Notes under the pieces: generated by a model | Database searches by the model: none | Seen by the model: only the letters and a program-made list of their open reading frames with translations | Told to the model about the DNA's origin: nothing | Part shown: positions 37,916 through 50,500 of the stretch, piece by piece | Layout of the letters: each line of letters opens with the position of its first letter | Numbering within the stretch: position 1 is the stretch's first letter | Program-made: the position numbers and the translations under genes | From: a virus | Length of the DNA: 64,000 bases | IMG/VR virus record: IMGVR_UViG_3300037245_001077 | Coordinates: 32,001-96,000 of that record | Direction: 5' to 3' (one strand)

Positions 37916-40683
37916 GTGTACGACGACAATAGCCGTATGGGGCTACATTTTCACATGTACTTCATTCCGTATATGCCACCTGCCGAGGTGACTAATCTAA
38001 TTATTGAGCAAATGGCTAAGGAGTATCGTAACCTTCAGATAAAGTGCAAAGCTTTTGATGATGCCTTAGCTGATCTGGAAGACCGTTATGCCGAAGAGAT
38101 GTATCCCAATCCAGATTGGGAAGAGAAAGATCTGTCAGAGAGGGACCAGGACTTGGTTTCCCGCATTAAAGGACAGACCGTTAGACTAGCTTGTGAGAAG
38201 CTCCGAAAGACTGCTGAGGAGCTGTGCAAGGCCAACGGGGTTATAAAAAGCTGAAAAACACTTGACTACATCCGCATCTTCATGTACCGTGGTACCTGGA
38301 GATGTGGAGTTGTGCCATGAGTGATTTCAAAGGAACCCTTGTTGTGACTATGCGATTCGACATACCTGTGCGTGCAGGTATGTACCAAACGGTGTTGAAG
38401 GAGAAGGGCGTAGTAACGCCTGACGATATCATTCGCATCGAAGAGCAGAATTACCTGGACAATGCGGACGACTACCTTGAGATCATGGGGGATCATGTGT
38501 CTGAAGTGTCATTTGATTTTCTGCCAGAGTCGAAAGGGGTAAAGCGTGAGTGACGATCTGTTGATTGACGATGATGAGTTGCTACCGGGTGAACTTGCTT
38601 TCACTTCTGCGGATCTCGAACGGCAAATAACAGACTTAACTGCGGTTTTGAAAAGGAAAGACGAGGAAGCCGAGCGTAGCTTGACTCAACTTCAACTCGA
38701 CGCTAACGCTGAGTATAAGCTGATAGTGAAAGAGCGACAGATGATTGAGGAGGAGCTAAATACTCTCAAAACCAACTTTGGGCGGTTAGAGGTAGAGGGC
38801 GAGAATATAAGTCTCGAAGGTAAACAGGTATTTGACCGTCTCGTGGAATTGGATAAAGAACGCATGATTGGGGTTCTGGCTATCCGCTTTCTCGCTCGAC
38901 GGATATCTGATGGTTTGATTTCTGTAGGTGCCTTACCCAATATCGACAAGAATATCTATGTGGCTCTTAGGGCGTGGGCAGAGAAAGCCACACCCCCCTT
39001 CTTTGAGGATGGCTGGCCCGAGGACAAGGCTCTTGGTGAGATACTAATGGAGATGTTTAAGGTTACTGGTACAACAGGTTCATATGCAAACATGTCTGGA
39101 AGGATCCAAGAGCTATTGACAGAGGATGAGAGCGAAGACTTCCAGAAGTACATGGACAAGGTACCGATTATTGACCCTCTTGGTATTACGAGTAAGACGG
39201 CTAGGCTGTACGCGAAGATTTCCCCTGAACTGGCAGGTGTCATACCTAAAGCACAAAGCTGGAAGCCTAGGGGGGCAGATGATATTTGAATGTGCAACTG
39301 ATGGATGTACAACTAAAACAGAGCGTAGAAGCCCTAGGCACAAGTACTGTGATGTATGTGCAACTAAAAGGAAGACCGACTATAATAAGGTTTGGTATGA
39401 AACTATTGGTGCTGAATGGAAGAGGATAAACTACTTAGAGAGCCGAGGGGGTATCCTTGTTACACCTAGAACACCGGAAGCTAAAGAGAAGACTAGACAA
39501 AGAGCTTTGAAAAGACACAGAGAGTACCAACAGCGGCCTGAGGTTAGAGAAAGACGTAAAAAATATGAGCAGCGGGCTAAAGTAGAGGAGCGTAATATTG
39601 GTTTGAGGGCAGAAATTATTGTTCTCCGCAGAGAACGCCGTCTTCAAGAGGAACGTGACGGTGGGAGACGTTTTTTTAGACGAAGAGCTAAAATTAGTGA
39701 GCCATATCTGCCAAAGCACCTTATATGGGGAAAGCCAGAAGAGGATGAAGTATCGTGAGCAAATCACAGGTTAGTAAGGAGCAGGTGGAGCACTTACATA
39801 AGAGTTGGCGCGGTAGGGGTGGGCGCAGTTCTCTGTATAACCTTGCTAAGAGACATGGAATAACCCTCAATGAAGCTTACGTGATTTTGAGTAGTCCCTT
39901 GCACGCTGCCACGAAGAGAGTGGAGATGGGGAAGAAGTTCGTGTCCTACAGGGAGAGATAATGCGAATCAAGGTCAATTGGTTTGTACGCTTCGTGGCTA
40001 AGGTGGCTAGAGTTGATCTTGATAGCTACGCCTGTGAGGACAAGAAGGACAAGAAGAGAGGCAGTGTAGACTTCAGTAAGGTAATGGCACAGCCGTTGCT
40101 ACCTCCCCGGCTTCAGTCAGACCTTAAGAGGATCATAGAGGAACAAGCAGAGCTAGCTGAGAAAATCACGGGGGTTAACCAACCACATACGGGAAGATCA
40201 CTAACGCAGGCTGGACAATGGAATGAAACAACCTTCACGGTTGGTACGGCTGAGGATCCCCAAGAGCTGTTAGAGAACATCTACTGGCCTGTGACTAAGG
40301 GTAATGGCCCTGGTGAGGTTACAGTAGACCCGTTGTCACAGGCGCGTGAGGATGCCCTTGAGGAGATCAATAGGCAGTACGCTATCCCTAAGGAGCTATG
40401 GGATAAGTTCAGGACTGAGGAGCAGATGGGGAAGTACTACCGGGAGCAGTTAGAGGAGTACATCCTTGCTAACGCACAGTCCGATGCCCCTCCACGTACT
40501 ACAGCGAAAGAGTATGCCGAGGTGGTGTATAGAGCCTTACAGAGAATGAGTGGTGTAGAGACTCCTCCCCGGCTTCAGTTCTCCCCCACACAGGACAAGC
40601 TGATAATCAGCCCTCCTCCGCCTGATCTAGAAGATGATTTGGGCGTAGATGGATGCGAGATACCAGAAGAGATGTTTGATTAG
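37916..40683 (+). other. Hypothetical ORFs (37916-38254, 38317-38553, 38546-39289, 39279-39758, 39755-39961, 39961-40683)
   Basis: Coupled + strand ORFs. Confidence 0.65.
38262..38290 (+). promoter_or_regulatory. Sigma70-type promoter
   Basis: TTGACT-N17-TACCGT. Confidence 0.4.
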
Positions 40684-41016
40684 TATTATGTTATGTATAC
40701 ACATGACATAGTTATTAACTATAGAACTTCTTTGTTTTCAGCCACTTACAAAAAGCCATGTCAGTTTTGTATATAAACGTACTTGCAGTATGTCCAATTT
40801 ACCGAGGTTACCCGGCGTTATAAGGGTATTTTATTACATAAAATGCATTTAATGTTATTATGTGTATGAGTTACAATGATTATAATCTGTAAGTTCTTTA
40901 GAATCAAGAGGTTAAAAAGTAATAAATACTACATTTAAGATACATAAGGTTTATAAGCCCGGATAACCTACATAGTTATCGTTCATTAGATGCTTTTAGT
41001 GCGAATCAAAAATGAG
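40684..41016. other. AT-rich non-coding region (candidate origin or recombination site)
   Basis: No ORF, strongly AT-rich, IHF-consensus AATCAAGAGGTTA at 40902-40914. Confidence 0.35.
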
Positions 41017-41017
41017 T

Positions 41018-41091
41018 ACCCCTGTAGCTCAATGGTAGAGCGTGGTCCTTATAAGGCCGTGACCCGAGTTCAACTCTCGGCAGGGGTACCA
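41018..41091 (+). tRNA. tRNA-Ile(UAU)
   Basis: Acceptor ACCCCTG/CAGGGGT, loop CT-TAT-AA, encoded CCA. Confidence 0.85.
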
Positions 41092-41092
41092 C

Positions 41093-41122
41093 TTGACAAC
41101 TTCGATACTTAGGTGGTATCGT
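41093..41122 (+). promoter_or_regulatory. Sigma70-type promoter for tmRNA
   Basis: TTGACA-N18-TATCGT with an extended TG. Confidence 0.55.
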
Positions 41123-41144
41123 GTTCCTAGCTTATACAGCACGA

Positions 41145-41175
41145 GGGAGGAAGGACGCGATGCGACCAACCTCCC
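41145..41175 (+). repeat. Conserved stem-loop motif, copy 1
   Basis: GGGAGG-AAGGACGCGATGCGACCAA-CCTCCC; second copy at 42897-42929. Confidence 0.55.
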
Positions 41176-41195
41176 GCCATGGTCTTTCAAAATAT

Positions 41196-41536
41196 GGGGG
41201 CGCACTGGTTTTGACAGGGATGTTTGACGAGAGGGAGAAGCGTGTCGTGTTTGCTTTCGGCGTTAACGAAGGCTACTCGTTTAGTTGACGAATTTGAACA
41301 ACTACCCTTAGCGGCATAGTTCCGCTAACGTGGTCCTAGAAACTCCACCTATCTGGAGACCACGCTATTAGGTGGGCTGAGGTTTCCGTGCTCCATTTGC
41401 AGAGGAAGGCGTAAAGCTCATGTAGGTTAACTTCCTCATCTTAAAAGTAGGGCTTGCTTGAGCCTATCAAGCTACACACGTAGAAGGCTCTTAGATCCTT
41501 CCTTGGACGTGGGTTCGATTCCCACCGCCTCCACCA
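41196..41536 (+). ncRNA. ssrA: tmRNA, tag peptide (A)DEFEQLPLAA*
   Basis: 5' GGGGGCG..TTTGAC, 3' GGTTCGATTCCCACCGCCTCCACCA, G3-U70 pair, tag ORF 41287-41319. Confidence 0.95.
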
Positions 41537-41554
41537 ATTTTTTAAGGAGACAAG

Positions 41555-41872
41555 ATGAAGTTAATCACACAAATTCCCGAGGTAGGTATCCTTCCGAATG
41601 GTTTGTGGTGGAAGTATGTCCCCGTAAGGGATGATTTTTTTCATTTCGCTATAGGTTTTTGTTGGCGTTGGGGGAAACCCTACTACGATGAGTTTGATAT
41701 GAAGGAGAAGGACTTCTCCAGAGGGTTTCGCACGTCTTTACGATTGGTGAAAAAAGGTAGAGAGTATCGACTTATTCCTGAGCTTTTCTTTTGGGAAGAA
41801 GGCCAACAGTATGGGACGAAGCAGTGGTTTGATCGTAAGCTTTGGAGAACGACCGAAAAAATATCGGATTAG
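41555..41872 (+). CDS. Hypothetical protein
   Basis: AAGGAG SD, 105 aa. Confidence 0.65.
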   Translation: MKLITQIPEVGILPNGLWWKYVPVRDDFFHFAIGFCWRWGKPYYDEFDMKEKDFSRGFRTSLRLVKKGREYRLIPELFFWEEGQQYGTKQWFDRKLWRTTEKISD

Positions 41873-41875
41873 GGG

Positions 41876-41940
41876 TTGACAAATCCTAAAACATATCCGA
41901 TACTAACTACCTTGCATGTAAATGCAACGATCTTTGACAT
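41876..41940 (+). promoter_or_regulatory. Promoter plus boxB/boxA-like antitermination leader
   Basis: TTGACA-N17-GATACT; hairpin TTGCAT-GTAA-ATGCAA; GATCTTTGACAT. Confidence 0.6.
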
Positions 41941-41944
41941 TCAG

Positions 41945-42815
41945 GATATGGCCACATGGGGTCATTAAGGAAACAGGGGAGTAATCCCCTGGAAGGGGTA
42001 ACGAGAGTGTTACGCTCGCCCACCTATCTTCGGGTAGGCCCATCCATGAGAATCGCGGGTAGCCCGAGCCACGGGTGGGTACGTGTGCCCTAACCTGAGG
42101 AGCAAGGTGATTGTACGGTGGTGCTAGATAAGGGACAAACCGGGTCTTCGGGCCACAAGGTAGCTCTTATCGATTCCTAGCAGGGATGCTAGGTAATCAT
42201 CGATCCAATTGTGAATCAGGCCACTCCTAAGCGATAGATACCTTAGTCCGAGGAAATGGCAAACCTAGGGCGGGGTAGCAGTACCATTGAGGTTTGGGCG
42301 GAATTCCCAAAAATCAAGAAGTACGGGTAAAGGGACAGCTAGTCTCGAATGCCAGGGCGCGTGTTGTATTTTGTGGCTCAAAAGGCTACGAAGCGATGGA
42401 CAGGGCACGAACCCAGTGACATTATCACCGTGAAATTCGCCTAATAGCAAGGCGTTTGGCCTTAGGACCAAAAGATGAGGGTGCAATTCCTTCATTTCAC
42501 TTCAAAACGATAAGGAAAGTCCCTGTCGGTCGCTAAGCGAAAGGGGCCTAAGCCTCTCCCCGCAAGGGAAGGGAGGCCACCGAAGCTCCCAAGGCTGAAA
42601 GTGGTCAATGTGGAAATGAAGACCTTGAGACGGCCATCTCAGGACGGACTGGAAACATCGAGTCGCGGAGCGATGACGAAGGAAATGCTACCTTCTTAAA
42701 AAAGCGGTCCTGGTCGAATACTGGAGAGATCCGGTGGATAAGTTGTTAACTGAAGGATGGAACCTTAGGGTACGGCAACAAAAGGTTGACCACAATAATG
42801 GGTAGTCTCACCATT
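41945..42815 (+). ncRNA. Large structured ncRNA, GOLLD-like (boundaries approximate)
   Basis: ~870 nt with no credible ORF, many tetraloop hairpins (UUCG, GCAA, GUAA), own promoter, next to tRNAs, internal tRNA-like domain; family assigned from recalled sequence features. Confidence 0.7.
42430..42504 (+). pseudogene. Degenerate tRNA-like element inside the large ncRNA
   Basis: GTGAAAT/ATTTCAC acceptor, D and T arms, 8-nt loop CCTTAGGA, ends TCA rather than CCA. Confidence 0.65.
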
Positions 42816-42896
42816 TTCTTTTATTCTCTACCAGTGGTAGGGAATCTTCAAAGGCTCGGTGGTGCCCGCCTGGACGAAACCACCCTATTTTGTCCC

Positions 42897-42929
42897 TAGC
42901 GGGAAGAACGCGATGCGCCTAACCCGCTA
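42897..42929 (+). repeat. Conserved stem-loop motif, copy 2
   Basis: TAGCGGG-AAGAACGCGATGCGCCTAA-CCCGCTA. Confidence 0.55.
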
Positions 42930-42946
42930 AATTTTGGTTGTAGTGT

Positions 42947-43021
42947 CGCGGAGTGTAGCAGCGGTAGCTAAGCTGGCTCATAACCAGATGGTCGGGGGTT
43001 CGAATCCCCCCTCCGCAACCA
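42947..43021 (+). tRNA. tRNA-Met(CAU), initiator-like
   Basis: C1:A72 mismatch, loop CT-CAT-AA, CCA. Confidence 0.85.
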
Positions 43022-43070
43022 AGTTTAGGGGGTGTTCTTTCACCCCTTTTCTTTATTGTCTGGAGAGAGT

Positions 43071-43223
43071 ATGACCCGCAACGCTTTGATCCAGGCTATT
43101 ATCGAGATGGTTACATCTTCTTTACCCAAGAAGATAACGTTGACCAAGAAGATTGGCAAGGATTTGTGGGTAACGGATACGAAGAGAATGCTCGCCCTTA
43201 TGAAGAAGAAGAGGAAGAAGTAA
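43071..43223 (+). CDS. Basic protein, MTREELIE family
   Basis: MTRNALIQAIIE N-terminus, Lys/Arg-rich. Confidence 0.65.
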   Translation: MTRNALIQAIIEMVTSSLPKKITLTKKIGKDLWVTDTKRMLALMKKKRKK

Positions 43224-43224
43224 C

Positions 43225-43590
43225 ATGACCCGCGAAGAGCTTACCGAAGCCATTGTTGAAGCAGTTATCGGTTCGCACGAGGCGGGTGTAGCTATCAATA
43301 CCATGTACAACCAGCATCCAAAGCTCTTTAAGAAAATAAACAAGTGGGAATCAGGGAAACGACGGCGTTTGCAGGTTATGAGAAAATTACGGTTGTCTAA
43401 GGATGACGATTTTGATATTAATGATAAGGCGGTAAGCCACTCTACACGCAAAGCGCATAAGTGGTTGTCTAAACGAAAGAATCCGTTAAATCGGACGTTT
43501 CAGGATCGGGTAAAGGCCGTAACTCGTAAGCCTTCAAAGCAAGTAGCGAAGGACGCGCATTACAATATGCGTTCTAGAATGACTTATTAG
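43225..43590 (+). CDS. Basic protein, MTREELIE family
   Basis: MTREELTEAIVE N-terminus. Confidence 0.8.
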   Translation: MTREELTEAIVEAVIGSHEAGVAINTMYNQHPKLFKKINKWESGKRRRLQVMRKLRLSKDDDFDINDKAVSHSTRKAHKWLSKRKNPLNRTFQDRVKAVTRKPSKQVAKDAHYNMRSRMTY

Positions 43591-43600
43591 AGGAAATAAC

Positions 43601-43642
43601 ATGTTCGTGACAACGATTAAAACCGAGGAGGAAAAGATCTAG
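43601..43642 (+). CDS. Leader peptide 1 (MFVTTIKTEEEKI) of tRNA operon 1
   Basis: GAGGA SD; the last 10 codons are Thr/Ile/Lys/Glu, matching the downstream tRNAs. Confidence 0.85.
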   Translation: MFVTTIKTEEEKI

Positions 43643-43647
43643 GATAG

Positions 43648-43698
43648 CCCTGGACATACCTTCGGTGTATCTCCAGGGACCGTAAGGTCTCTTTTTTT
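43648..43698 (+). terminator. Attenuator 1
   Basis: Antiterminator CCCTGGA/TCCAGGG overlaps terminator AGGGACC-GTAA-GGTCTCT-T6. Confidence 0.85.
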
Positions 43699-43708
43699 GT
43701 GTCTATGA

Positions 43709-43782
43709 GCCGGTGTAGCATAATGGCAATGCGCGTCTCTTGTAAAGACGGAGATCCAGTTCAACTCTGGCATCCGGCTCCA
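43709..43782 (+). tRNA. tRNA-Thr(UGU)
   Basis: CGTCT-CTTGTAA-AGACG; slightly irregular acceptor/T junction. Confidence 0.8.
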
Positions 43783-43787
43783 ATATT

Positions 43788-43862
43788 CACCCTGTAGAAC
43801 AATGGTCAGTTTACCGGGCTTTCAACCCGATGATCGGGGTTCAACTCCCCGCAGGGTGACCA
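43788..43862 (+). tRNA. tRNA-Glu(UUC)
   Basis: Loop CT-TTC-AA, CCA. Confidence 0.85.
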
Positions 43863-43866
43863 ACTT

Positions 43867-43942
43867 GGCGGTGTCTGCTAACGGTTAGGCAACATGGTTC
43901 TCACCCATGAAATGGCGGGTTCGATTCCCCCCACCGTCACCA
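43867..43942 (+). tRNA. tRNA-Glu(CUC)
   Basis: CATGG-TTCTCAC-CCATG, CCA. Confidence 0.85.
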
Positions 43943-43954
43943 TAGGAGATCAAC

Positions 43955-44107
43955 ATGAACGGCGACCGAAACGACAAGATGTCCGAACTCATGCGAGCAA
44001 TTCGCTGGGGGTGGGACTGTATGTACCCTGTCCGTATCAAGGGTAGTGAGAAACGTCGTTTGCGTCGAAAATACCGTCACGATGCTAAACGTGAGATAGC
44101 CCTGTAG
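43955..44107 (+). CDS. Small basic protein (50 aa) ending inside tRNA-Ile
   Basis: AGGAG SD, MNGDRNDK...REIAL*. Confidence 0.55.
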   Translation: MNGDRNDKMSELMRAIRWGWDCMYPVRIKGSEKRRLRRKYRHDAKREIAL

Positions 44108-44172
44108 CTCAGTGGTAGAGCAGAGGGTCGATAACCCTCGTGTCCGTGGTTCGAATCCACGTGGGGCTACCA
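44098..44172 (+). tRNA. tRNA-Ile(GAU)
   Basis: GAGGG-TCGATAA-CCCTC (C33), CCA. Confidence 0.85.
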
Positions 44173-44179
44173 TTTACAC

Positions 44180-44255
44180 ACCCCCATGACGCAACTGGCA
44201 GCGTAGCTGGCTCTTAACCAGTATGTTGAAGGTTCGACTCCTTCTGGGGGTACCA
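44180..44255 (+). tRNA. tRNA-Lys(CUU)
   Basis: Loop CT-CTT-AA, CCA. Confidence 0.9.
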
Positions 44256-44258
44256 TGT

Positions 44259-44333
44259 GGGATCGTGGCGCAATGGAAGCGCAACAGGCTTTTAACCTGA
44301 ATGTTGAGAGTTCGAGTCTCTCCGGTCCCACCA
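44259..44333 (+). tRNA. tRNA-Lys(UUU)
   Basis: Loop CT-TTT-AA, CCA. Confidence 0.9.
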
Positions 44334-44365
44334 CCTTCTTCCTTCTTTATTTCTTGGGAGATGCT

Positions 44366-44599
44366 ATGACCCGAGAAGAACTTATTGAAGCCATTGTTGA
44401 AGTGATGCAGCGAAGTAAACATCCTCTAACGGGTGGTCATTTCAGTTTTCCTCCTCCTATGAAAACAAGAGCAGGGCAGTGGACAAGACGGAAGCGTTTG
44501 AGGGTTGTTTCTGGTGCTATGACAGGTAAAGACCCTAGCATAACGAAATCTATGGCTTTTGCTTCTGAAATAGCTCGAAGAAAACGAGCAAACAAATAG
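44366..44599 (+). CDS. Basic protein, MTREELIE family
   Basis: MTREELIEAIVE N-terminus. Confidence 0.8.
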   Translation: MTREELIEAIVEVMQRSKHPLTGGHFSFPPPMKTRAGQWTRRKRLRVVSGAMTGKDPSITKSMAFASEIARRKRANK

Positions 44600-44610
44600 A
44601 GGATTAAAAT

Positions 44611-44844
44611 ATGACCCGTGAAGAGATTATTGAAGCCATTATCCTTACTGAGTTCGAGCCTTTGACTATGATTGCTGCTGGTGCGGCTACTGGTTACGCG
44701 GCTAGAAAGTTGAGAAACCGTTATAGCGTTAAAGGAGCCACAGGTGCGGCTAAGAGAAGTTCGGCTATCTCGAAGGCATATGCGAAGAAGGCTGAGCGGC
44801 ATACCGCAAGGGCAAAGTTCCTTACTGCTAGAAAGAACGCATAA
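44611..44844 (+). CDS. Basic protein, MTREELIE family
   Basis: MTREEIIEAIILTE N-terminus. Confidence 0.8.
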   Translation: MTREEIIEAIILTEFEPLTMIAAGAATGYAARKLRNRYSVKGATGAAKRSSAISKAYAKKAERHTARAKFLTARKNA

Positions 44845-45944
44845 TGACCCGAGATAAGATTATTGAAGATATTGTTGAAGGCTACGTCAAAGATGTGCTC
44901 ACTTACGATTTGAGTAAGCATCATCCTAGACCCCATGAGCGCTTCCGCTTCAACAACGCAGCCCGTAAAGCCAAAGAGAAGGCACGGGAAGTGTTTAGGA
45001 ACAAAGCCAAGAGCGCACATGATACTCAACCTATTGACGTTTCCAAGTTTGTATCCAAATCTACAGCTCGTAGGGCACCGGGGATCAAAGTCCCCAAAAG
45101 CTATCGCCCTAAACTTAAGATGAGTTCAGCTAGGCGAAAGGGTCCAACCGTTCGCCAACAGCAGGGCAGAAAAGCAGTGTTGGGTGCAGCGGCAGCTATT
45201 GGTGCGGGTATGGTGGCTCATAAGGCGTACAAGTACCATAAGGCCAAAAAGAAAAGAGAGATGCGTGAAGGCTTGATTGAGGCCCTTTCTACTCATAAGG
45301 TCTACAAGGCTAGGATGTTTTCAAAGAAGCCACAATCTTATGCTAAAACAATGACTTATTGGCAAACTCCAGAACAGAAGAGTTTAAAAGCTGTTAAGAA
45401 AAAGATTCCCGTGGTTTCTTTAGAGTTAAGGAGTAAAAAGGATAAGTCTACCCATCAGGTGTCGCTTGCTCCAGATCCTCGTAAGAGGCTTTGGGGGAAA
45501 TTGGCAAAGATGCAGGGGTTTGACCCTAAATCAAAGAAAGCAACGCTTAAACGACGGGCGTTTTATCGTTTGCGTAAGAACAAGTACAAGGTTGTTGAGG
45601 GTGACCTAGGGGACTTCGCTGTAGCCCCAACCGCAGCCGTAGACGCTTCCCCGATCCATAAAGAGCAGAGGGATCGGTATTGGATGATCAAGAACCGTAA
45701 GAAGATCAAGAACATGATAGTGAAAGAGGTTTTTGACGACACCTATGGTTCGAGCGTGCTTGACCGAGCAGCACGGGTGGAAAAATCTACAAACTTTATT
45801 GCTAAGGCGAAAAAGCTTAAAAGCCTTGTTGGTAAGGCGAGAAAGCTTACTAAGGATTATGAGCTTGGTATGTACCACGGTGCGGGCAAAATGTCTAAGA
45901 TGAATATCTCTTTGGGTAACAAAAAATTTGGGAAGATAGGGTAG
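44844..45944 (+). CDS. Large basic protein, MTREELIE family, with internal copies of the motif
   Basis: MTRDKIIEDIVE; internal MREGLIEAL and RKKIKNMIVKE. Confidence 0.85.
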   Translation: MTRDKIIEDIVEGYVKDVLTYDLSKHHPRPHERFRFNNAARKAKEKAREVFRNKAKSAHDTQPIDVSKFVSKSTARRAPGIKVPKSYRPKLKMSSARRKGPTVRQQQGRKAVLGAAAAIGAGMVAHKAYKYHKAKKKREMREGLIEALSTHKVYKARMFSKKPQSYAKTMTYWQTPEQKSLKAVKKKIPVVSLELRSKKDKSTHQVSLAPDPRKRLWGKLAKMQGFDPKSKKATLKRRAFYRLRKNKYKVVEGDLGDFAVAPTAAVDASPIHKEQRDRYWMIKNRKKIKNMIVKEVFDDTYGSSVLDRAARVEKSTNFIAKAKKLKSLVGKARKLTKDYELGMYHGAGKMSKMNISLGNKKFGKIG

Positions 45945-45952
45945 GGGTTAAC

Positions 45953-46225
45953 ATGACACGCGAAGAAGTGATTGAAGCCATTGTATACGAGATGACGCAA
46001 GAGAAAAAAGATAAGTGGAAGTCTCGTGCCAAGAAAACTGCAATCGGGGCTGGTATAATTGGAGTAGGTGTTCTTGCTACGAAAGCTCCTAAAGCTAAGC
46101 GTTATCATGCTTTAGGTAAAAAGGTGTCTTCTACGGTGGATAGTAGCGCTTACAGACAAGCTTTGGTTTCTAAGAACAAATATGGATTGCATGTTGACAA
46201 ATACTATGGTTCTTCTTCTTTTTAA
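45953..46225 (+). CDS. Basic protein, MTREELIE family
   Basis: MTREEVIEAIVYE N-terminus. Confidence 0.8.
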   Translation: MTREEVIEAIVYEMTQEKKDKWKSRAKKTAIGAGIIGVGVLATKAPKAKRYHALGKKVSSTVDSSAYRQALVSKNKYGLHVDKYYGSSSF

Positions 46226-46228
46226 GGC

Positions 46229-46257
46229 TTGACAACGGTAACAAAAGATGCCATACT
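46229..46257 (+). promoter_or_regulatory. Sigma70-type promoter of tRNA operon 2
   Basis: TTGACA-N17-CATACT with an extended TG. Confidence 0.7.
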
Positions 46258-46266
46258 AAATCAGTA

Positions 46267-46326
46267 ATGAAGAATTTTCTATATACCCTCGTTGATTGTG
46301 TAGCCCACTTTGATAGTTGGCTTTAG
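46267..46326 (+). CDS. Leader peptide 2 (MKNFLYTLVDCVAHFDSWL) of tRNA operon 2
   Basis: 13 of 18 codons are F/L(CUN)/Y/V/D/C/A/H, the downstream tRNA set. Confidence 0.85.
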   Translation: MKNFLYTLVDCVAHFDSWL

Positions 46327-46377
46327 GGGGGTTTTTGTCTTTTCGTCTTTGACACCCCCTGCACAAGGGGGTTTTTT
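46325..46377 (+). terminator. Attenuator 2
   Basis: G-run at the stop codon can pair with ACCCCCT; terminator ACCCCCT-GCACA-AGGGGGT-T5. Confidence 0.85.
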
Positions 46378-46384
46378 AGTATTC

Positions 46385-46461
46385 GGGGGTGTAGTCTAGT
46401 AGAGTAAGGCCCTGGATTGTCAGTCCAGTGATCGCCGGTTCGAGTCCGGTCACTCCCGCCA
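46385..46461 (+). tRNA. tRNA-Asp(GUC)
   Basis: CTGGA-TTGTCAG-TCCAG, G73, CCA. Confidence 0.9.
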
Positions 46462-46462
46462 A

Positions 46463-46474
46463 GTTCTTTGAAAA
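46463..46474 (+). promoter_or_regulatory. boxA antitermination site
   Basis: GTTCTTTGAAAA. Confidence 0.65.
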
Positions 46475-46481
46475 TTAGTGT

Positions 46482-46566
46482 GCTGAGGTGGCGAAGTTGG
46501 TAGACGCGCTGGTCTTAGGAACCAGTGTCTTCGGGCGTGTGGGTTCGAATCCCTCCCTCAGCACCA
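46482..46566 (+). tRNA. tRNA-Leu(UAG)
   Basis: CTGGT-CTTAGGA-ACCAG, long variable arm. Confidence 0.92.
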
Positions 46567-46577
46567 AAATATCGTGT

Positions 46578-46653
46578 GGGCTGTCATGTTCCAAGGGGGC
46601 GAGGAGCACTTGCAATGCACCTGTGGAGGGTTCGATTCCCTTGCGGTCCACCA
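46578..46653 (+). tRNA. tRNA-Ala(UGC)
   Basis: G3-U70, loop CT-TGC-AA; atypical D arm. Confidence 0.78.
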
Positions 46654-46657
46654 AGTT

Positions 46658-46731
46658 GTGAGGGTAGTGTAATGGCAGCACGAGAGTTTGTGGCACTCTC
46701 AGAGCGGATTCAAATTCCGTCCCTCACCCCA
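46658..46731 (+). tRNA. tRNA-His(GUG)
   Basis: AGAGT-TTGTGGC-ACTCT, C73; position -1 is T, not G. Confidence 0.85.
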
Positions 46732-46811
46732 GTTTCGGTTTTGGGGGTCCGACACAGTGTTACAAGCTACCTCAGAGGTAGTTCAAGGGCACTCTACAAA
46801 ATCCCCATTTG

Positions 46812-46885
46812 AGGGTGGTGGCCGAGAGGCTAGGCAGGGGACTGCAAATCCTTTTACGCGGGTTCAAATCCCGCCCACCTTTCCA
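46812..46885 (+). tRNA. tRNA-Cys(GCA)
   Basis: Loop CT-GCA-AA, U73. Confidence 0.9.
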
Positions 46886-46886
46886 T

Positions 46887-46972
46887 GCCAGTATAGACCT
46901 CTATGGAGGGGGGACGGGTTGTAGCCCCGTTGTTGCAAGGCCCGCAAGGTTCGATTCCTTGTACTGGCACCA
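46887..46972 (+). tRNA. tRNA-Tyr(GUA)
   Basis: ACGGG-TTGTAGC-CCCGT, long variable arm. Confidence 0.85.
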
Positions 46973-46975
46973 TTT

Positions 46976-47051
46976 GCCTCTGTAGCTCAGGTAGTAGAGC
47001 GCGAGACTGAAGATCTCGGCGTCGGGGGTGCAAGTCCTCCTGGGGGCACCA
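46976..47051 (+). tRNA. tRNA-Phe(GAA)
   Basis: CGAGA-CTGAAGA-TCTCG. Confidence 0.9.
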
Positions 47052-47054
47052 TTT

Positions 47055-47130
47055 AGGCAGGTAGCTCAGTTGGTAGAGTTGCTGGTTTACACCCAGTCTG
47101 TCATCGGTTCGAATCCGGTCCTGCCTACCA
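47055..47130 (+). tRNA. tRNA-Val(UAC)
   Basis: Loop TT-TAC-AC, CCA. Confidence 0.9.
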
Positions 47131-47192
47131 TTCACTTTATTGTTTGGGGTATGTATGTTTCGTGAAGATTATTTTATAAAACGGGATAAAAT

Positions 47193-48068
47193 ATGACGGA
47201 TAGAAATTTAGATTATGACTATGCTGCAAAGCAACGAGATATTACTCGTGAGCAGTATGCTAAAGGAACATATATTTATGCTGGTTATAGTCCTGCAACA
47301 CCTTTAGTGTGGAATGTTGAGGATCAGCCGATTGGCTCAGGTGCTCCGGCAAACGTGTTTGACGCCTGGGGCGAGGACTTGGAGGTCCGGGCGATCCCTG
47401 TGGATGGGAAAGAGCCGCTGACGCCGTTCACCAAGGAGCTTCATGCAAAAACAGGGAACCCTGGATATCTCTATGGGCTGTACTTCACATTATTGCTCGA
47501 TGGTTTTGATATTGATTTGAATAATGGTAAATTCCGGGTTGAAATTGTGGCTCGGCATGTTGTCCCAGATCCAGAATTTCAGCCCGGTCAATACTTACAG
47601 CTTGGTGAGGACGACTATTACCCAGAATGGGATACGTGGCGCATGTTCAAAGCCGGGTTTCTTTCTGAAGAGTCCGGCGAAAGTGATGTTCAATCTTGGC
47701 ATTGGGAGTTTGGTGGTGAACTATATAATTCGTTCTATGACTACAAGGTAAACTGGGAGTTCGGAACACCAATTGTCGGATACACTATCCACCAGATCGA
47801 GGTGGATTTCCAAGCTGGCGTGTTCGAGCAACGCATCGTTGGTCATTGGGCAGGAGATCAAGGAGAGCAATCATCTTGGTGGGTTAAGGCTCCTCGCGCC
47901 GCTGAATTTCCGGCTGGAGAACAGTCAGCACAGACGCTCATATTATGGCTTCAAGATAAAAACAGCGGAGAGGCGATGGTTACTCAGCTTTGGCTTGGCC
48001 CAATTACTGACCCATTCCCAAATGGCGCGGTTTTGACATCGAATATCGGGTTTGGAAATAGTTCTTGA
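47193..48068 (+). CDS. Aromatic beta-rich protein, paralog of 52656 and 53515
   Basis: Shared C-terminal W-x-G-x3-D-x-F/W-P motif. Confidence 0.7.
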   Translation: MTDRNLDYDYAAKQRDITREQYAKGTYIYAGYSPATPLVWNVEDQPIGSGAPANVFDAWGEDLEVRAIPVDGKEPLTPFTKELHAKTGNPGYLYGLYFTLLLDGFDIDLNNGKFRVEIVARHVVPDPEFQPGQYLQLGEDDYYPEWDTWRMFKAGFLSEESGESDVQSWHWEFGGELYNSFYDYKVNWEFGTPIVGYTIHQIEVDFQAGVFEQRIVGHWAGDQGEQSSWWVKAPRAAEFPAGEQSAQTLILWLQDKNSGEAMVTQLWLGPITDPFPNGAVLTSNIGFGNSS

Positions 48069-48093
48069 CAAGCCCTTTATTGGGTGTTAGAGT
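48065..48093 (+). promoter_or_regulatory. Sigma70-type promoter of tRNA operon 3
   Basis: TTGACA-N17-TAGAGT with an extended TG. Confidence 0.7.
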
Positions 48094-48102
48094 GATTAAG
48101 TT

Positions 48103-48171
48103 ATGAAGAGATTATCCTCAAGGTTGTGGCAACAGAGCGGCTCGAATCCGAGTCGCCCAGGAGAGCTGTAA
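48103..48171 (+). CDS. Leader peptide 3 (MKRLSSRLWQQSGSNPSRPGEL) of tRNA operon 3
   Basis: 18 consecutive codons for R/L(UUR)/S/W/Q/G/N/P, the downstream tRNA set. Confidence 0.88.
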   Translation: MKRLSSRLWQQSGSNPSRPGEL

Positions 48172-48172
48172 C

Positions 48173-48236
48173 TAAGGGGTAAAGATGCCAATTCGCCCGT
48201 TCCGTTCTTACCCCCTAGTACAGTAGGGGGTTTTTT
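48173..48236 (+). terminator. Attenuator 3
   Basis: Antiterminator GGGGTAA/TTACCCC overlaps terminator ACCCCCTA-GTACAG-TAGGGGGT-T5. Confidence 0.85.
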
Positions 48237-48246
48237 ATTGATCTAA

Positions 48247-48258
48247 GTTCTTTGAAAA
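48247..48258 (+). promoter_or_regulatory. boxA antitermination site
   Basis: GTTCTTTGAAAA, identical to 46463. Confidence 0.65.
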
Positions 48259-48271
48259 CAAAAAGTTATGT

Positions 48272-48348
48272 CCGAGAATGGCGCAGTTTGGCAGCGCACT
48301 TGGTTTGGGACCAAGGTGTCGAAGGTTCAAATCCTTCTTCTCGGACCA
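48272..48348 (+). tRNA. tRNA-Pro(UGG)
   Basis: CTTGG-TTTGGGA-CCAAG. Confidence 0.92.
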
Positions 48349-48349
48349 T

Positions 48350-48434
48350 GGAAGGTACCGTCTATGGAGACAAGCGGTTTTGAACACCGTAGGCACGTGT
48401 AAGCGCGGGGGTTCGATTCCTCTACCTTCCTCCA
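48350..48434 (+). tRNA. tRNA-Ser(UGA)
   Basis: Loop TT-TGA-AC, long variable arm. Confidence 0.85.
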
Positions 48435-48444
48435 AGTTGTGTGT

Positions 48445-48519
48445 TCGGGCATGGTGTTAGTGGTAGCATACGAGGTTTCCACCCTCTGGGGCCGGGTTCG
48501 AGTCCTGGTGCCCGAACCA
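48445..48519 (+). tRNA. tRNA-Gly(UCC)
   Basis: Loop TT-TCC-AC, CCA. Confidence 0.85.
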
Positions 48520-48529
48520 AAATTTATGT

Positions 48530-48603
48530 AGGGGTATAGTGAAATGGTATCACGGCAGATTCCAGACCTGCTTTTCCGGGTTCAAATCCTGGTACCTCTG
48601 CCA
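48530..48603 (+). tRNA. tRNA-Trp(CCA)
   Basis: Loop TT-CCA-GA, G73. Confidence 0.88.
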
Positions 48604-48609
48604 AAGATT

Positions 48610-48698
48610 GGAAGGGTGGCTGAGTGGTAACAGCGCCGGGTTGCTAACCCGAGGCCGCGCTTCGGCGTGCGAGGGTTCGATCCCCTCTCCTTCCTCCA
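48610..48698 (+). tRNA. tRNA-Ser(GCU)
   Basis: Loop TT-GCT-AA, long variable arm. Confidence 0.9.
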
Positions 48699-48703
48699 AG
48701 TGT

Positions 48704-48816
48704 TGAACGGTGTGGCGTGGCAGCGTCAGGTTTTCCGTTAAGGAGATCATCCCTCCACTGCCTAATCGGAGAATGATGGGAGCTGGGTGGGGAATCCAGC
48801 CACCGTTCACTTTTTT
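48704..48816 (+). ncRNA. Unidentified structured RNA inside tRNA operon 3
   Basis: Closing stem TGAACGGTG/CACCGTTCA, internal hairpins, T6 tail; not a cloverleaf. Confidence 0.5.
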
Positions 48817-48818
48817 GA

Positions 48819-48895
48819 GGCCCTGTAGCTCAGCGAACAGAGCATATGGCTACGAACCATAGTTGTCGGGGGTTTGAATCCCTCCAGGGCTTCCA
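48819..48895 (+). tRNA. tRNA-Arg(ACG)
   Basis: TATGG-CTACGAA-CCATA. Confidence 0.88.
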
Positions 48896-48898
48896 TTT

Positions 48899-48974
48899 GC
48901 ACCCGTGGTCTAATGGCAAAGGCACTGCGTTTCTACCGCAGCAGATGTGGGTTCGACTCCTACCGGGTGTTCCA
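48899..48974 (+). tRNA. tRNA-Arg(UCU)
   Basis: CTGCG-TTTCTAC-CGCAG. Confidence 0.88.
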
Positions 48975-48984
48975 AAACTTATTC

Positions 48985-49063
48985 GGCACGGTAGCTTAGC
49001 ATGGCCTAAAGCAGTAGTTTGTTAAACTAATGATCGTAGGTTCAAATCCTACCTGTGCCGCCA
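48985..49063 (+). tRNA. tRNA-Asn(GUU)
   Basis: Loop TT-GTT-AA, G73. Confidence 0.88.
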
Positions 49064-49069
49064 AATTTT

Positions 49070-49156
49070 GCTGGAGTGGCTGGAATTGGTATACGCAGGG
49101 GACTTAAAATCCCTGGCCGAAAGGTCGTGTGGGTTCGACTCCCACCTCCAGCACCA
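49070..49156 (+). tRNA. tRNA-Leu(UAA)
   Basis: Loop CT-TAA-AA, long variable arm. Confidence 0.92.
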
Positions 49157-49161
49157 GCTAT

Positions 49162-49238
49162 GCCGCTCTGGGCCAATTGGTAGAGTCGGGGGTCTCAAAA
49201 GCCCTTTGTTCCGAGTTCGAATCTCGGGGGCGGCACCA
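49162..49238 (+). tRNA. tRNA-Leu(CAA), short variable loop
   Basis: Loop CT-CAA-AA, A73, 5-nt variable loop. Confidence 0.82.
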
Positions 49239-49241
49239 TTT

Positions 49242-49317
49242 AGCGGAGTAGCTCAATTGGTAGAGCACTGGACTCTGAATTCAGTTGTTGTAGGTTCAAA
49301 CCCTACCTCCGCTGCCA
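49242..49317 (+). tRNA. tRNA-Gln(CUG)
   Basis: Loop CT-CTG-AA. Confidence 0.88.
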
Positions 49318-49392
49318 TTTTGATTGCAGAAACTGACACTTTTTGGTAGGTTACGCGAATGAAAAGCACTGTTTGTGGTCATAATGACTACT

Positions 49393-49468
49393 AGGGGAGT
49401 AGCTCAATTGGTGGAGCAACAGGCTTTGAACCTGTTGGATGTGAGTTCGAACCTCACCTCCCCTTCCA
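49393..49468 (+). tRNA. tRNA-Gln(UUG)
   Basis: ACAGG-CTTTGAA-CCTGT. Confidence 0.88.
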
Positions 49469-49497
49469 TGTATACTTTATTGAAGGCCATGTGTGCT

Positions 49498-49677
49498 ATG
49501 GACACTTTTATCGTTTTGCTAATTGGGGTTGTCGCTTTGATAGCGATTGCTATGGGGTTGAGTGACCGATACTCTCCTCCTTGTCCGAAATGTGGAAAGG
49601 GTCTTAAGATTCTAGGAGCAGACTATCTATGTATCTCGTGTGACAGGGTTTACTCAGAGGATGAAATTCCAACTTAG
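49498..49677 (+). CDS. Small TM plus zinc-ribbon protein
   Basis: TM helix then CPKC...CISC; start codon uncertain. Confidence 0.5.
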   Translation: MDTFIVLLIGVVALIAIAMGLSDRYSPPCPKCGKGLKILGADYLCISCDRVYSEDEIPT

Positions 49678-49693
49678 TTGTGGCTGCAAAGGC

Positions 49694-49722
49694 TTGACAA
49701 ACAACCCTACACCATCTATGAT
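49694..49722 (+). promoter_or_regulatory. Sigma70-type promoter
   Basis: TTGACA-N17-TATGAT. Confidence 0.7.
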
Positions 49723-49810
49723 TCTAGTGCTATGACAACTGGAATTCTTCACCAATCTATTCATTTGCCCGCCTCTTTAGGTGGGCCTTGCTGTTTAAGG
49801 AGGAAAAACA

Positions 49811-50194
49811 ATGAAGTTGTATGTTTTGTTTGAGCAACCGGATGAAACGTATCCGGGGCAGTATGCGCCGTTAGCCGTTACGGTACTCGATGAGTACACT
49901 GTGGATAATTCCGGAAGATCGCTTCACGAGGCTCAGGAGGCAGAACTTGCTCGTCTTTCTATGAAGGAAGGGTTTGATCCTACAGATGCTAAGTGGGCCT
50001 GGGTTGAGGTGGATCTTGGTGTGACTGAACAGTTGATCCGAGATGCTATTCTTCAGCCTGCCCTCGCTGTCCAAGGTGTAGTAGCAGTTCCGGCTGCTCC
50101 TCAAGGGCAGAAACACCCTTCTTATCAGGCCATTACCGTGACTAGAGGAAGGCCAGGAGCAGGAAGAATTGTTGACGATGAAATTGTGGAGTAA
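49811..50194 (+). CDS. Hypothetical protein
   Basis: AAGGAGG SD. Confidence 0.75.
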   Translation: MKLYVLFEQPDETYPGQYAPLAVTVLDEYTVDNSGRSLHEAQEAELARLSMKEGFDPTDAKWAWVEVDLGVTEQLIRDAILQPALAVQGVVAVPAAPQGQKHPSYQAITVTRGRPGAGRIVDDEIVE

Positions 50195-50197
50195 CCC

Positions 50198-50500
50198 ATG
50201 CCCAAGTATAAACGTTATGGGTATGTGGTGGTGGAAAGGTTCTCAAAGCCTTTCGGATTAGTGGCATGTACAAATGTTGGCTTTCACCTTAATCCCCAAA
50301 AAGCGCAGGAACAGGTTGATGCTATAATCGAGTCCGCTGGAGAGGGTAAAGTCGTTGCAGATGAAACAGTTACAGGCAAAGACGATTTTGTCCCCTCTAT
50401 CCGTCGTCATGTCTTAATTGAATACCCTGGTCACGAGACTCTCCAGGTTCTCATCCAGCGATGGTATGTGGAGGTTGGGAGAGATCGCCATGGGGGATAG
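50198..50500 (+). CDS. Hypothetical protein
   Basis: GGAG SD. Confidence 0.65.
   Translation: MPKYKRYGYVVVERFSKPFGLVACTNVGFHLNPQKAQEQVDAIIESAGEGKVVADETVTGKDDFVPSIRRHVLIEYPGHETLQVLIQRWYVEVGRDRHGG

Follow-up and report, generated by a model that had tools for sequence, protein, structure and literature searches.

Enterobacterial leader-peptide attenuators, among them thrL (Thr and Ile), ilvL of ilvGMEDA, ivbL of ilvBN (Ile/Leu/Val), trpL, hisL, pheL, and leuL, combine a short leader rich in regulatory codons with mutually exclusive 1:2, 2:3, and 3:4 helices and an intrinsic terminator ahead of the genes under control; a ribosome that finishes at the stop codon blocks the antiterminator, and a stalled ribosome leads to read-through. 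Here, we describe an element with the same anatomy, for which the dependence on ribosome position is predicted, in front of a cluster of tRNA genes in a phage. It lies in a 64,000-nucleotide (nt) stretch of DNA (hereafter the window), bases 32001–96000 of a 176.5-kb IMG/VR phage record; public runs holding this DNA or its relatives are marine-sediment and marine metagenomes. From sequence and structure modelling, we consider it probable (roughly 0.7) that this element, attenuator 1, is a ribosome-mediated (trp-type leader-peptide) transcription attenuator that senses Thr/Ile/Lys/Glu decoding and gates the transcription of tRNAs.

The locus also departs from the enterobacterial systems. The downstream genes are six tRNA genes and an open reading frame (ORF) of 50 amino acids (aa), rather than genes for biosynthesis or aminoacylation, therefore the sensed molecule and the product would be identical. 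Up to 12 tRNAs are sampled by a leader here, mostly once each, whereas enterobacterial attenuators use runs of one codon. Moreover, attenuator 1 lacks its own promoter and is coupled to the ORF in front of it. The element is not recognized by any Rfam leader model: a cmscan search of positions 40000–50500 (E up to 0.1) found neither T-box nor Thr_leader, His_leader, Leu_leader, Trp_leader, or other leader families, and listed just tRNAs, a transfer-messenger RNA (tmRNA), GOLLD, and chance hits. In Gram-positive bacteria, T-box riboswitches are likewise terminator/antiterminator switches that report the supply of charged tRNA; however, they bind uncharged tRNA directly without a ribosome and control aminoacyl-tRNA synthetase and amino-acid genes, while the switch here would need translation. 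In mycobacteria, leaderless polycysteine short ORFs are Cys-responsive attenuators (bioRxiv 10.1101/834739). Two sister elements in the window, attenuators 2 and 3, have nearly leaderless leaders and resemble the mycobacterial case in that tiny ORFs lie directly at the transcript 5′ end or close to it and the speed of their translation would set downstream expression. By contrast, the mycobacterial ORFs are single-codon runs that act on cysteine-related protein genes, and leader 1 here has a Shine-Dalgarno (SD) sequence. In full-text literature searches, we found no report of tRNA genes controlled by a leader peptide, and leader-peptide attenuation of such genes is apparently unpublished.

The leader of attenuator 1 reads ATG TTC GTG ACA ACG ATT AAA ACC GAG GAG GAA AAG ATC TAG, codons 4–13 being exclusively Thr, Ile, Lys, or Glu. 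The genes that follow (43709–44333) are, in order, Thr-UGU, Glu-UUC, Glu-CUC, the 50-aa ORF, Ile-GAU, Lys-CUU, and Lys-UUU. As a previous sequence-only reading of this DNA had claimed, the leader contains all six exact Watson-Crick codons for these tRNAs (ACA, GAA, GAG, ATC, AAG, and AAA) and lacks ATA, tRNA-Ile(UAU) being encoded elsewhere, at 41018. Six exact codons among 12 non-start codons would arise with P ~1e-4 from random codons at this genome's usage. Nine of the 12 fall within the set of the cluster under standard wobble (binomial P 5e-5), 10 of the 12 under four-box U34 wobble (P 2e-5), and the joint probability of match and coverage is ~1e-5. An unbiased pipeline, which considered every ATG ORF of 8–35 codons in the 260 nt 5′ of each tRNA cluster, returned leader 1 as the sole candidate ORF at cluster 1 (P 2.8e-5). 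Among all 1,247 short ATG ORFs on both strands of the whole 176.5-kb genome, leader 1 ranked first for its own tRNA set, as did leaders 2 and 3 each for theirs. Coverage of the own cluster was 7/7 for leader 2 and 12/12 for leader 3, and low for the other clusters in a three-by-three table.

Nine control phages (S-CRM01, Csp-D17, Cyrano, the distant relative G001, XacN1, Atu_ph07, CBB, KVP40, and Bxz1), with ~80 tRNA clusters, gave one comparable codon match, in XacN1. Two more flags in Atu_ph07 proved to be artefacts at loci too short for background. XacN1 is a cultured jumbo phage of Xanthomonas, and its mini-ORF, MNKPYYKRYYAKA* (AP018399.1 30428–30469; L023:1429–1470), is located ~90 nt before tRNAs Lys(CUU), Lys(UUU), and Tyr(GUA). 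Seven of the 12 codons match (P 1.5e-6), and the stretch is well structured (z –2.6) with no canonical hairpin plus U-run. Possibly, this mini-ORF is a cultured analogue that works differently.

Next to the codon match, the RNA of attenuator 1 has the competing helices expected of an attenuator (Table 1). The antiterminator proposed in the sequence-only reading is present as described, has an inner stem capped by C(UUCG)G, and shares AGGG (43675–43678) with the terminator stem. We also noted a predicted pairing that had not been described, between the 3′ half of the leader (43622–43643) and the 5′ half of the antiterminator; this anti-antiterminator overlaps the coding region. Predicted energies were –10.1 kcal/mol for the terminator, –16.3 kcal/mol for the antiterminator, –15.7 kcal/mol for the anti-antiterminator, and –25.8 kcal/mol for the anti-antiterminator plus terminator. 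In the model, the 1:2, 2:3, and 3:4 pairings at attenuator 1 constitute a full trp-like scheme, in which the antiterminator excludes the terminator. The other hallmarks of leader-peptide attenuators are likewise found here, namely a start signal (ATG at 43601 with GAGGA), codon enrichment, and an intrinsic terminator before the genes.

We then modelled the folding of the nascent RNA at equilibrium, with 28 nt masked to represent the footprint of a ribosome. As the sequence-only reading had anticipated, predicted terminator formation in the window changed with the position of the ribosome: its probability was 0.95 without a ribosome and 0.96 with a ribosome at the stop codon, 0.93 at the two non-matching codons (TTC and GTG), and 0.17–0.59 with the A site on ATT to AAG. 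When the sequence 5′ of the terminator was dinucleotide-shuffled 150 times, no shuffle attained this switch amplitude of 0.45; for leader 3, one of 150 shuffles attained the corresponding amplitude. Folding of the whole stretch of attenuator 1 was not better than that of shuffles (z –0.89); the switch behavior alone stands out.

Table 1. Positions of the three attenuators and of neighboring genes in the window.
Feature	Position	Strand	Details
tRNA-Ile(UAU), outside the leader-1 cluster	41018		ARAGORN
Upstream 121-aa ORF (MTREELTEAIVE... family)	43225-43590	+	stop TAG 43588-43590, 10 nt 5′ of leader ATG
SD GAGGA	43590-43594	+	6 nt 5′ of leader ATG
Leader 1 ORF MFVTTIKTEEEKI*, 13 codons	43601-43642	+
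Region 1, 5′ strand of anti-antiterminator	43622-43643	+	pairs with 43649-43666; minimum-free-energy fold
Antiterminator hairpin 1 (regions 2:3)	43648-43678	+	outer stem CCCTGGA 43648-43654 / TCCAGGG 43672-43678
Intrinsic terminator 1 (regions 3:4)	43675-43698	+	7-bp stem 43675-43692, GTAA loop, U-run (TTTTTT) to 43698
tRNA-Thr(UGU), tRNA-Glu(UUC), tRNA-Glu(CUC)	43709-43942	+	ARAGORN, Rfam
50-aa ORF within tRNA block	43955-44107	+	AGGAG SD
tRNA-Ile(GAU), tRNA-Lys(CUU), tRNA-Lys(UUU)	44098-44333	+	ARAGORN, Rfam
Sister attenuator 2	46229-46378	+	promoter TTGACA-17-TGcCATACT
Leader 2 MKNFLYTLVDCVAHFDSWL*	46267-46326	+
Leader 2 G-run	46325-46331	+	complementary to terminator C-arm
Terminator 2 plus T-run	46354-46372 (stem)	+
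Sister attenuator 3	48065-48237	+	promoter TTGACA-17-TGtTAGAGT
Leader 3 MKRLSSRLWQQSGSNPSRPGEL*	48103-48171	+
Antiterminator arm 3	48172-48182	+	pairs with 48207-48217
Terminator 3 plus T-run	48210-48231 (stem)	+

The same architecture recurs at two other tRNA clusters. Attenuator 2 is followed by tRNAs Asp, Leu(UAG), (Ala-like), His, Cys, Tyr, Phe, and Val, and attenuator 3 by 12 tRNAs (Pro, Ser, Gly, Trp, Ser, Arg, Arg, Asn, Leu(UAA), Leu(CAA), Gln, and Gln). All three elements have a canonical hairpin plus U-run, and in each a segment that complements the terminator 5′ arm begins 0–5 nt past the leader stop. The three leaders have no common sequence beyond listing the amino acids of their own clusters, and leader 3 consists of 21 different codons with none repeated. 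Attenuator 1 differs from its sisters in having an SD sequence and no promoter. In the sister promoters (TTGACA-17-extended –10), the –10 hexamer ends exactly 9 nt 5′ of the ATG, and leaders 2 and 3 are thus nearly leaderless. Terminators 1–3 end 10, 6, and 34 nt, respectively, 5′ of the first tRNA with no promoter in between, therefore the tRNAs would be made by read-through only. Contigs of two public runs (X4 and X5) span leaders 2 and 3.

The Ala-like member of cluster 2 is a tRNA-like sequence at 46578–46650 (+) that is absent from the ARAGORN calls. It has the anticodon loop CUUGCAA (UGC, Ala), a G3:U70 pair, and a normal T-arm; its D-arm is odd, it scored only 19 bits on the tRNA-Sec model, and its minimum-free-energy fold is not a cloverleaf. 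If this tRNA is real, cluster 2 would comprise eight tRNAs, and the GCC codon of leader 2 would also be matched.

We also examined relatives of the locus, for which three metagenome contigs representing two distinct sequences were available: the Logan assemblies L011 and L012, which are ~92% identical to the window, and L013, a JGI metagenome contig. The leader core (ACA ACG ATT AAA ACC GAG GAG GAA AAG) is invariant in all three. In L011, the two non-matching leader codons change synonymously and the last codon changes from Ile to Ser; the leader peptide is identical in L013 and differs by one residue in L011/L012. All seven terminator pairs are kept, with one compensatory change (A-U to G-C) and two G-C/G-U swaps, and all 12 antiterminator pairs are kept in every relative. 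For the 1:2 helix, 97.8% of cells are paired, and three one-sided changes, all at variable loop positions, preserve complementarity with the leader, which is invariant. Variants of attenuator 1 were also found in contigs of four other runs (X2–X5), in which the best-supported terminator differences (43679 A>G, 43689 C>T, and 43690 T>C) all preserve pairing. Contig joints in these runs suggest that certain relatives have a single, fused tRNA-Lys in place of two, or lack both. The modelled switch of L013 is as sharp as that of the window.

The relatives also bear on the relationship of attenuator 1 to the gene in front of it. The 121-aa ORF has 26 synonymous and one non-synonymous codon differences from L011. 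In L013 this ORF is missing, through an indel flanked by a TAACATG repeat, and the leader ATG follows the preceding stop by 1 nt. Since L013 keeps the leader, the switch, and the tRNAs without the 121-aa ORF, the element belongs to the tRNAs rather than to the upstream gene. The 50-aa ORF is replaced by other ORFs in L012 and L013. In the window, attenuator 1 sits behind one or two small ORFs, after tRNA-Met and an imperfect terminator, and no sigma-70-like promoter was found on the + strand from 42425 to 46229. The proposal of the sequence-only reading, that a leader with an SD sequence but no promoter is an internal attenuator of an upstream transcript, fits these observations because no promoter was found and the upstream ORF stops close to the leader ATG (10 nt before it, 1 nt in L013). 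Collectively, four independent in silico lines support the attenuator reading, and the original suggestion of an attenuator gains from the architecture being repeated at two clusters, the position-dependent switch, the retention in relatives, and the linkage to tRNAs in L013.

Searches for further relatives were less productive. The GenBank phage collection, searched with DNA and one large protein, yielded no near relative, and IMG/VR gave no match to three neighboring proteins and three leader-core patterns. A metagenome scan with a 240-aa protein found no match; the leader-core pattern then gave L013. Using the DNA polymerase, we found two distant relatives (67% identity), one with four tRNAs and no informative leader, and the other without a tRNA in the part examined. 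Homologues of a 291-aa protein lie in unrelated contexts, and for a 90-aa protein no relatives were found. In the distant relative G001, with 67% identity in the DNA polymerase (L009:7150–7209), a strong GC-rich hairpin plus T-run directly precedes a lone tRNA-Gln, with no convincing Gln-rich leader.

We propose the following model for attenuator 1. Given that the search revealed no promoter belonging to the element, RNA polymerase would arrive from the upstream region, and the ribosome that ends the upstream ORF, or one that binds GAGGA, would translate the 13-codon leader. With rapid decoding of Thr, Ile, Lys, and Glu codons, the ribosome would reach TAG with its footprint over the 5′ arm of the antiterminator, which starts 5 nt past the stop; the terminator stem and U-run would then form, and transcription would end 10 nt before tRNA-Thr. 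Without a ribosome, the 3′ half of the leader would pair with the 5′ half of the antiterminator (1:2), and the terminator would form as well. A shortage of any one charged tRNA of the set would make the ribosome stall on codons 4–12 and mask region 1, so that the antiterminator (2:3) would form and take AGGG from the terminator, and the polymerase would read into the six tRNA genes. The new tRNAs would relieve the stall, the outcome thus being a demand-driven negative feedback on tRNA supply and an OR gate over six tRNAs.

Several observations weigh against this model. Leader 1 has only one to three codons per tRNA, and a brief slowdown may be too short to hold the ribosome. An RNA polymerase pause element was not identified, and because attenuator 1 lacks a promoter, ribosome and polymerase can be kept in step only through coupling to the ORF upstream. 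The equilibrium folding model gives an ambiguous picture for leader 2, whose terminator is predicted to be stronger than its antiterminator. In the E. coli trp attenuator, the terminator is likewise stronger than the antiterminator, and the choice between them is kinetic. The modelled switch of L011 is weaker and differently placed (terminator probability 0.46 without a ribosome and 0.87 at ATT/AAA/ACC). The lack of changes in the nine core codons is not significant against the synonymous rate of the neighboring gene (P 0.12), and, as shuffle controls indicated, the covariation has no statistical weight because there are just three distinct sequences. In L012, the leader is followed by tRNAs Thr and Glu(UUC) only, then by a promoter and a protein gene, and the Ile and Lys codons are still in the leader; this contig ends before the presence of Ile and Lys tRNAs can be judged. 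Lastly, among the public runs holding this DNA, none is on record as RNA.

Other explanations of the locus were considered. In one of them, which we judge to be unlikely, translation of the leader acts by another route or with the opposite sign, for example through Rho or RNase shielding or through a translating ribosome that melts structure, and the antiterminator/terminator overlap is incidental. The lack of an identified pause site would agree with such a route, as would the equilibrium behavior of leader 2, which is unlike the simple model, and the Lys/Tyr-rich mini-ORF of XacN1, which stands before Lys-Lys-Tyr tRNAs without a canonical terminator. Nevertheless, each of the three elements in the window has the canonical hairpin plus U-run and, just past the leader stop, the complement of the terminator 5′ arm; furthermore, the modelled switches of leaders 1 and 3 beat shuffles, and a compensatory change keeps the terminator stem.

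A second possibility keeps the wiring of attenuator 1 but takes the signal to come from a nutrient-poor host that is starved of amino acids or aminoacylates its tRNAs poorly, not from a loss or shortage of tRNA. To a stalled ribosome, a missing tRNA is indistinguishable from an uncharged one, as established for the trp, his, and thr attenuators, and the structure predictions fit both readings equally. However, extra tRNA is no help when the amino acid is lacking, therefore the output would not relieve a starvation signal. In addition, the matching is at the level of isoacceptors, with both Lys and both Glu codons but no ATA in leader 1, and with the Leu codon boxes divided between leaders 2 and 3; it therefore points to tRNA species rather than amino acids. 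We regard starvation as a rather improbable signal.

The remaining explanations dispense with sensing. That the element directly follows a protein gene, has no promoter, and folds over its whole length no better than shuffles would suit a plain intrinsic terminator of the upstream transcript, with a chance mini-ORF and with tRNAs made by leaky read-through. This explanation is strongly disfavored and, in our view, very improbable: the top rank of the leader among 1,247 ORFs is repeated at two other clusters, whose terminators end nothing because these clusters have their own promoters; leader and switch persist in L013 without the upstream gene; and the controls in other phages were negative. 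That the 13-residue peptide is itself the functional product is least credible, since, even though the peptide is identical in L013 and differs by one residue in L011/L012, that residue is the last one (Ile to Ser in L011), and the three leaders have nothing in common except the amino acids of their own clusters, leader 3 not repeating any of its 21 codons.

The three attenuators are part of one island (41018–49468) that holds all tRNA genes of the window, 26 by ARAGORN, plus the tmRNA. The tmRNA of the phage (41196–41536, +) has its own TTGACA promoter at 41093 and the tag peptide DEFEQLPLAA; in combination with tRNAs that cover 19 or 20 amino acids, it suggests a heavy investment against translation stress. 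A GOLLD RNA (Rfam RF02032; 42354–42814, +; 161.5 bits, cut-off 150) lies between a TTGACA promoter (41876) and tRNA-Met, and contains a tRNA-like element at 42430–42501; at its place, L013 has just a short structured stretch. Six small or basic ORFs, with starts at 43072, 43225, 44367, 44611, 44844, and 45953 (+), are interleaved with the tRNA blocks. They have a common N-terminus, MTR(E/N)(E/A)(L/I)I(E/Q)AI(V/I)E, and diverge beyond it. Contig joints in relatives coincide with these N-termini (for example, 44397 joined to 43218), and the shared ORF start may be a recombination joint for module shuffling. Two spacers between tRNA genes, 46732–46811 (80 nt) and 48699–48815 (117 nt) (+), are skipped cleanly in related contigs (46731 joined to 46812 in run X2; 48698 joined to 48816 in all four runs) and may be inserts or decayed tRNAs.

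The function of phage tRNAs has been debated for decades, the candidates being codon compensation, replacement of degraded pools, and escape from defences that cut tRNAs. A leader spelling out the codons of its own operon would mean that the phage measures the decoding speed of those codons and makes the tRNAs on demand. Abstracts of two studies describe phage tRNAs that replace host tRNAs cut by defence nucleases (eLife 2023, PMC10264068; Nature 2024, PMC11464382); these abstracts concern tRNA function, and they give a reason for making tRNA-Lys and others on demand. In line with them, the anticodon-nuclease idea of the sequence-only reading is a plausible motive for on-demand tRNAs, and an anticodon nuclease such as PrrC or AriB as the actual trigger is speculation. 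More tentatively still, large phages in general might run a 'tRNA audit', in which each tRNA operon is gated by a leader listing its own codons, failure of the host pool, including nuclease-cut tRNA-Lys, tRNA-Glu, or others, is sensed codon by codon, and the exact replacement set is made; at present we consider so general a circuit doubtful. If true, phage tRNA genes would be an inducible counter-defence, not a constitutive supplement to codon usage.

The attenuators described here would widen trp-type attenuation to genes whose product is itself the molecule being sensed, and would be compact natural sensors that monitor the supply of as many as 12 tRNAs. The codon-matched leader would be a searchable marker in other phages, and through such codon-listing leaders the debate on phage tRNAs might be reduced to a simple reporter experiment.

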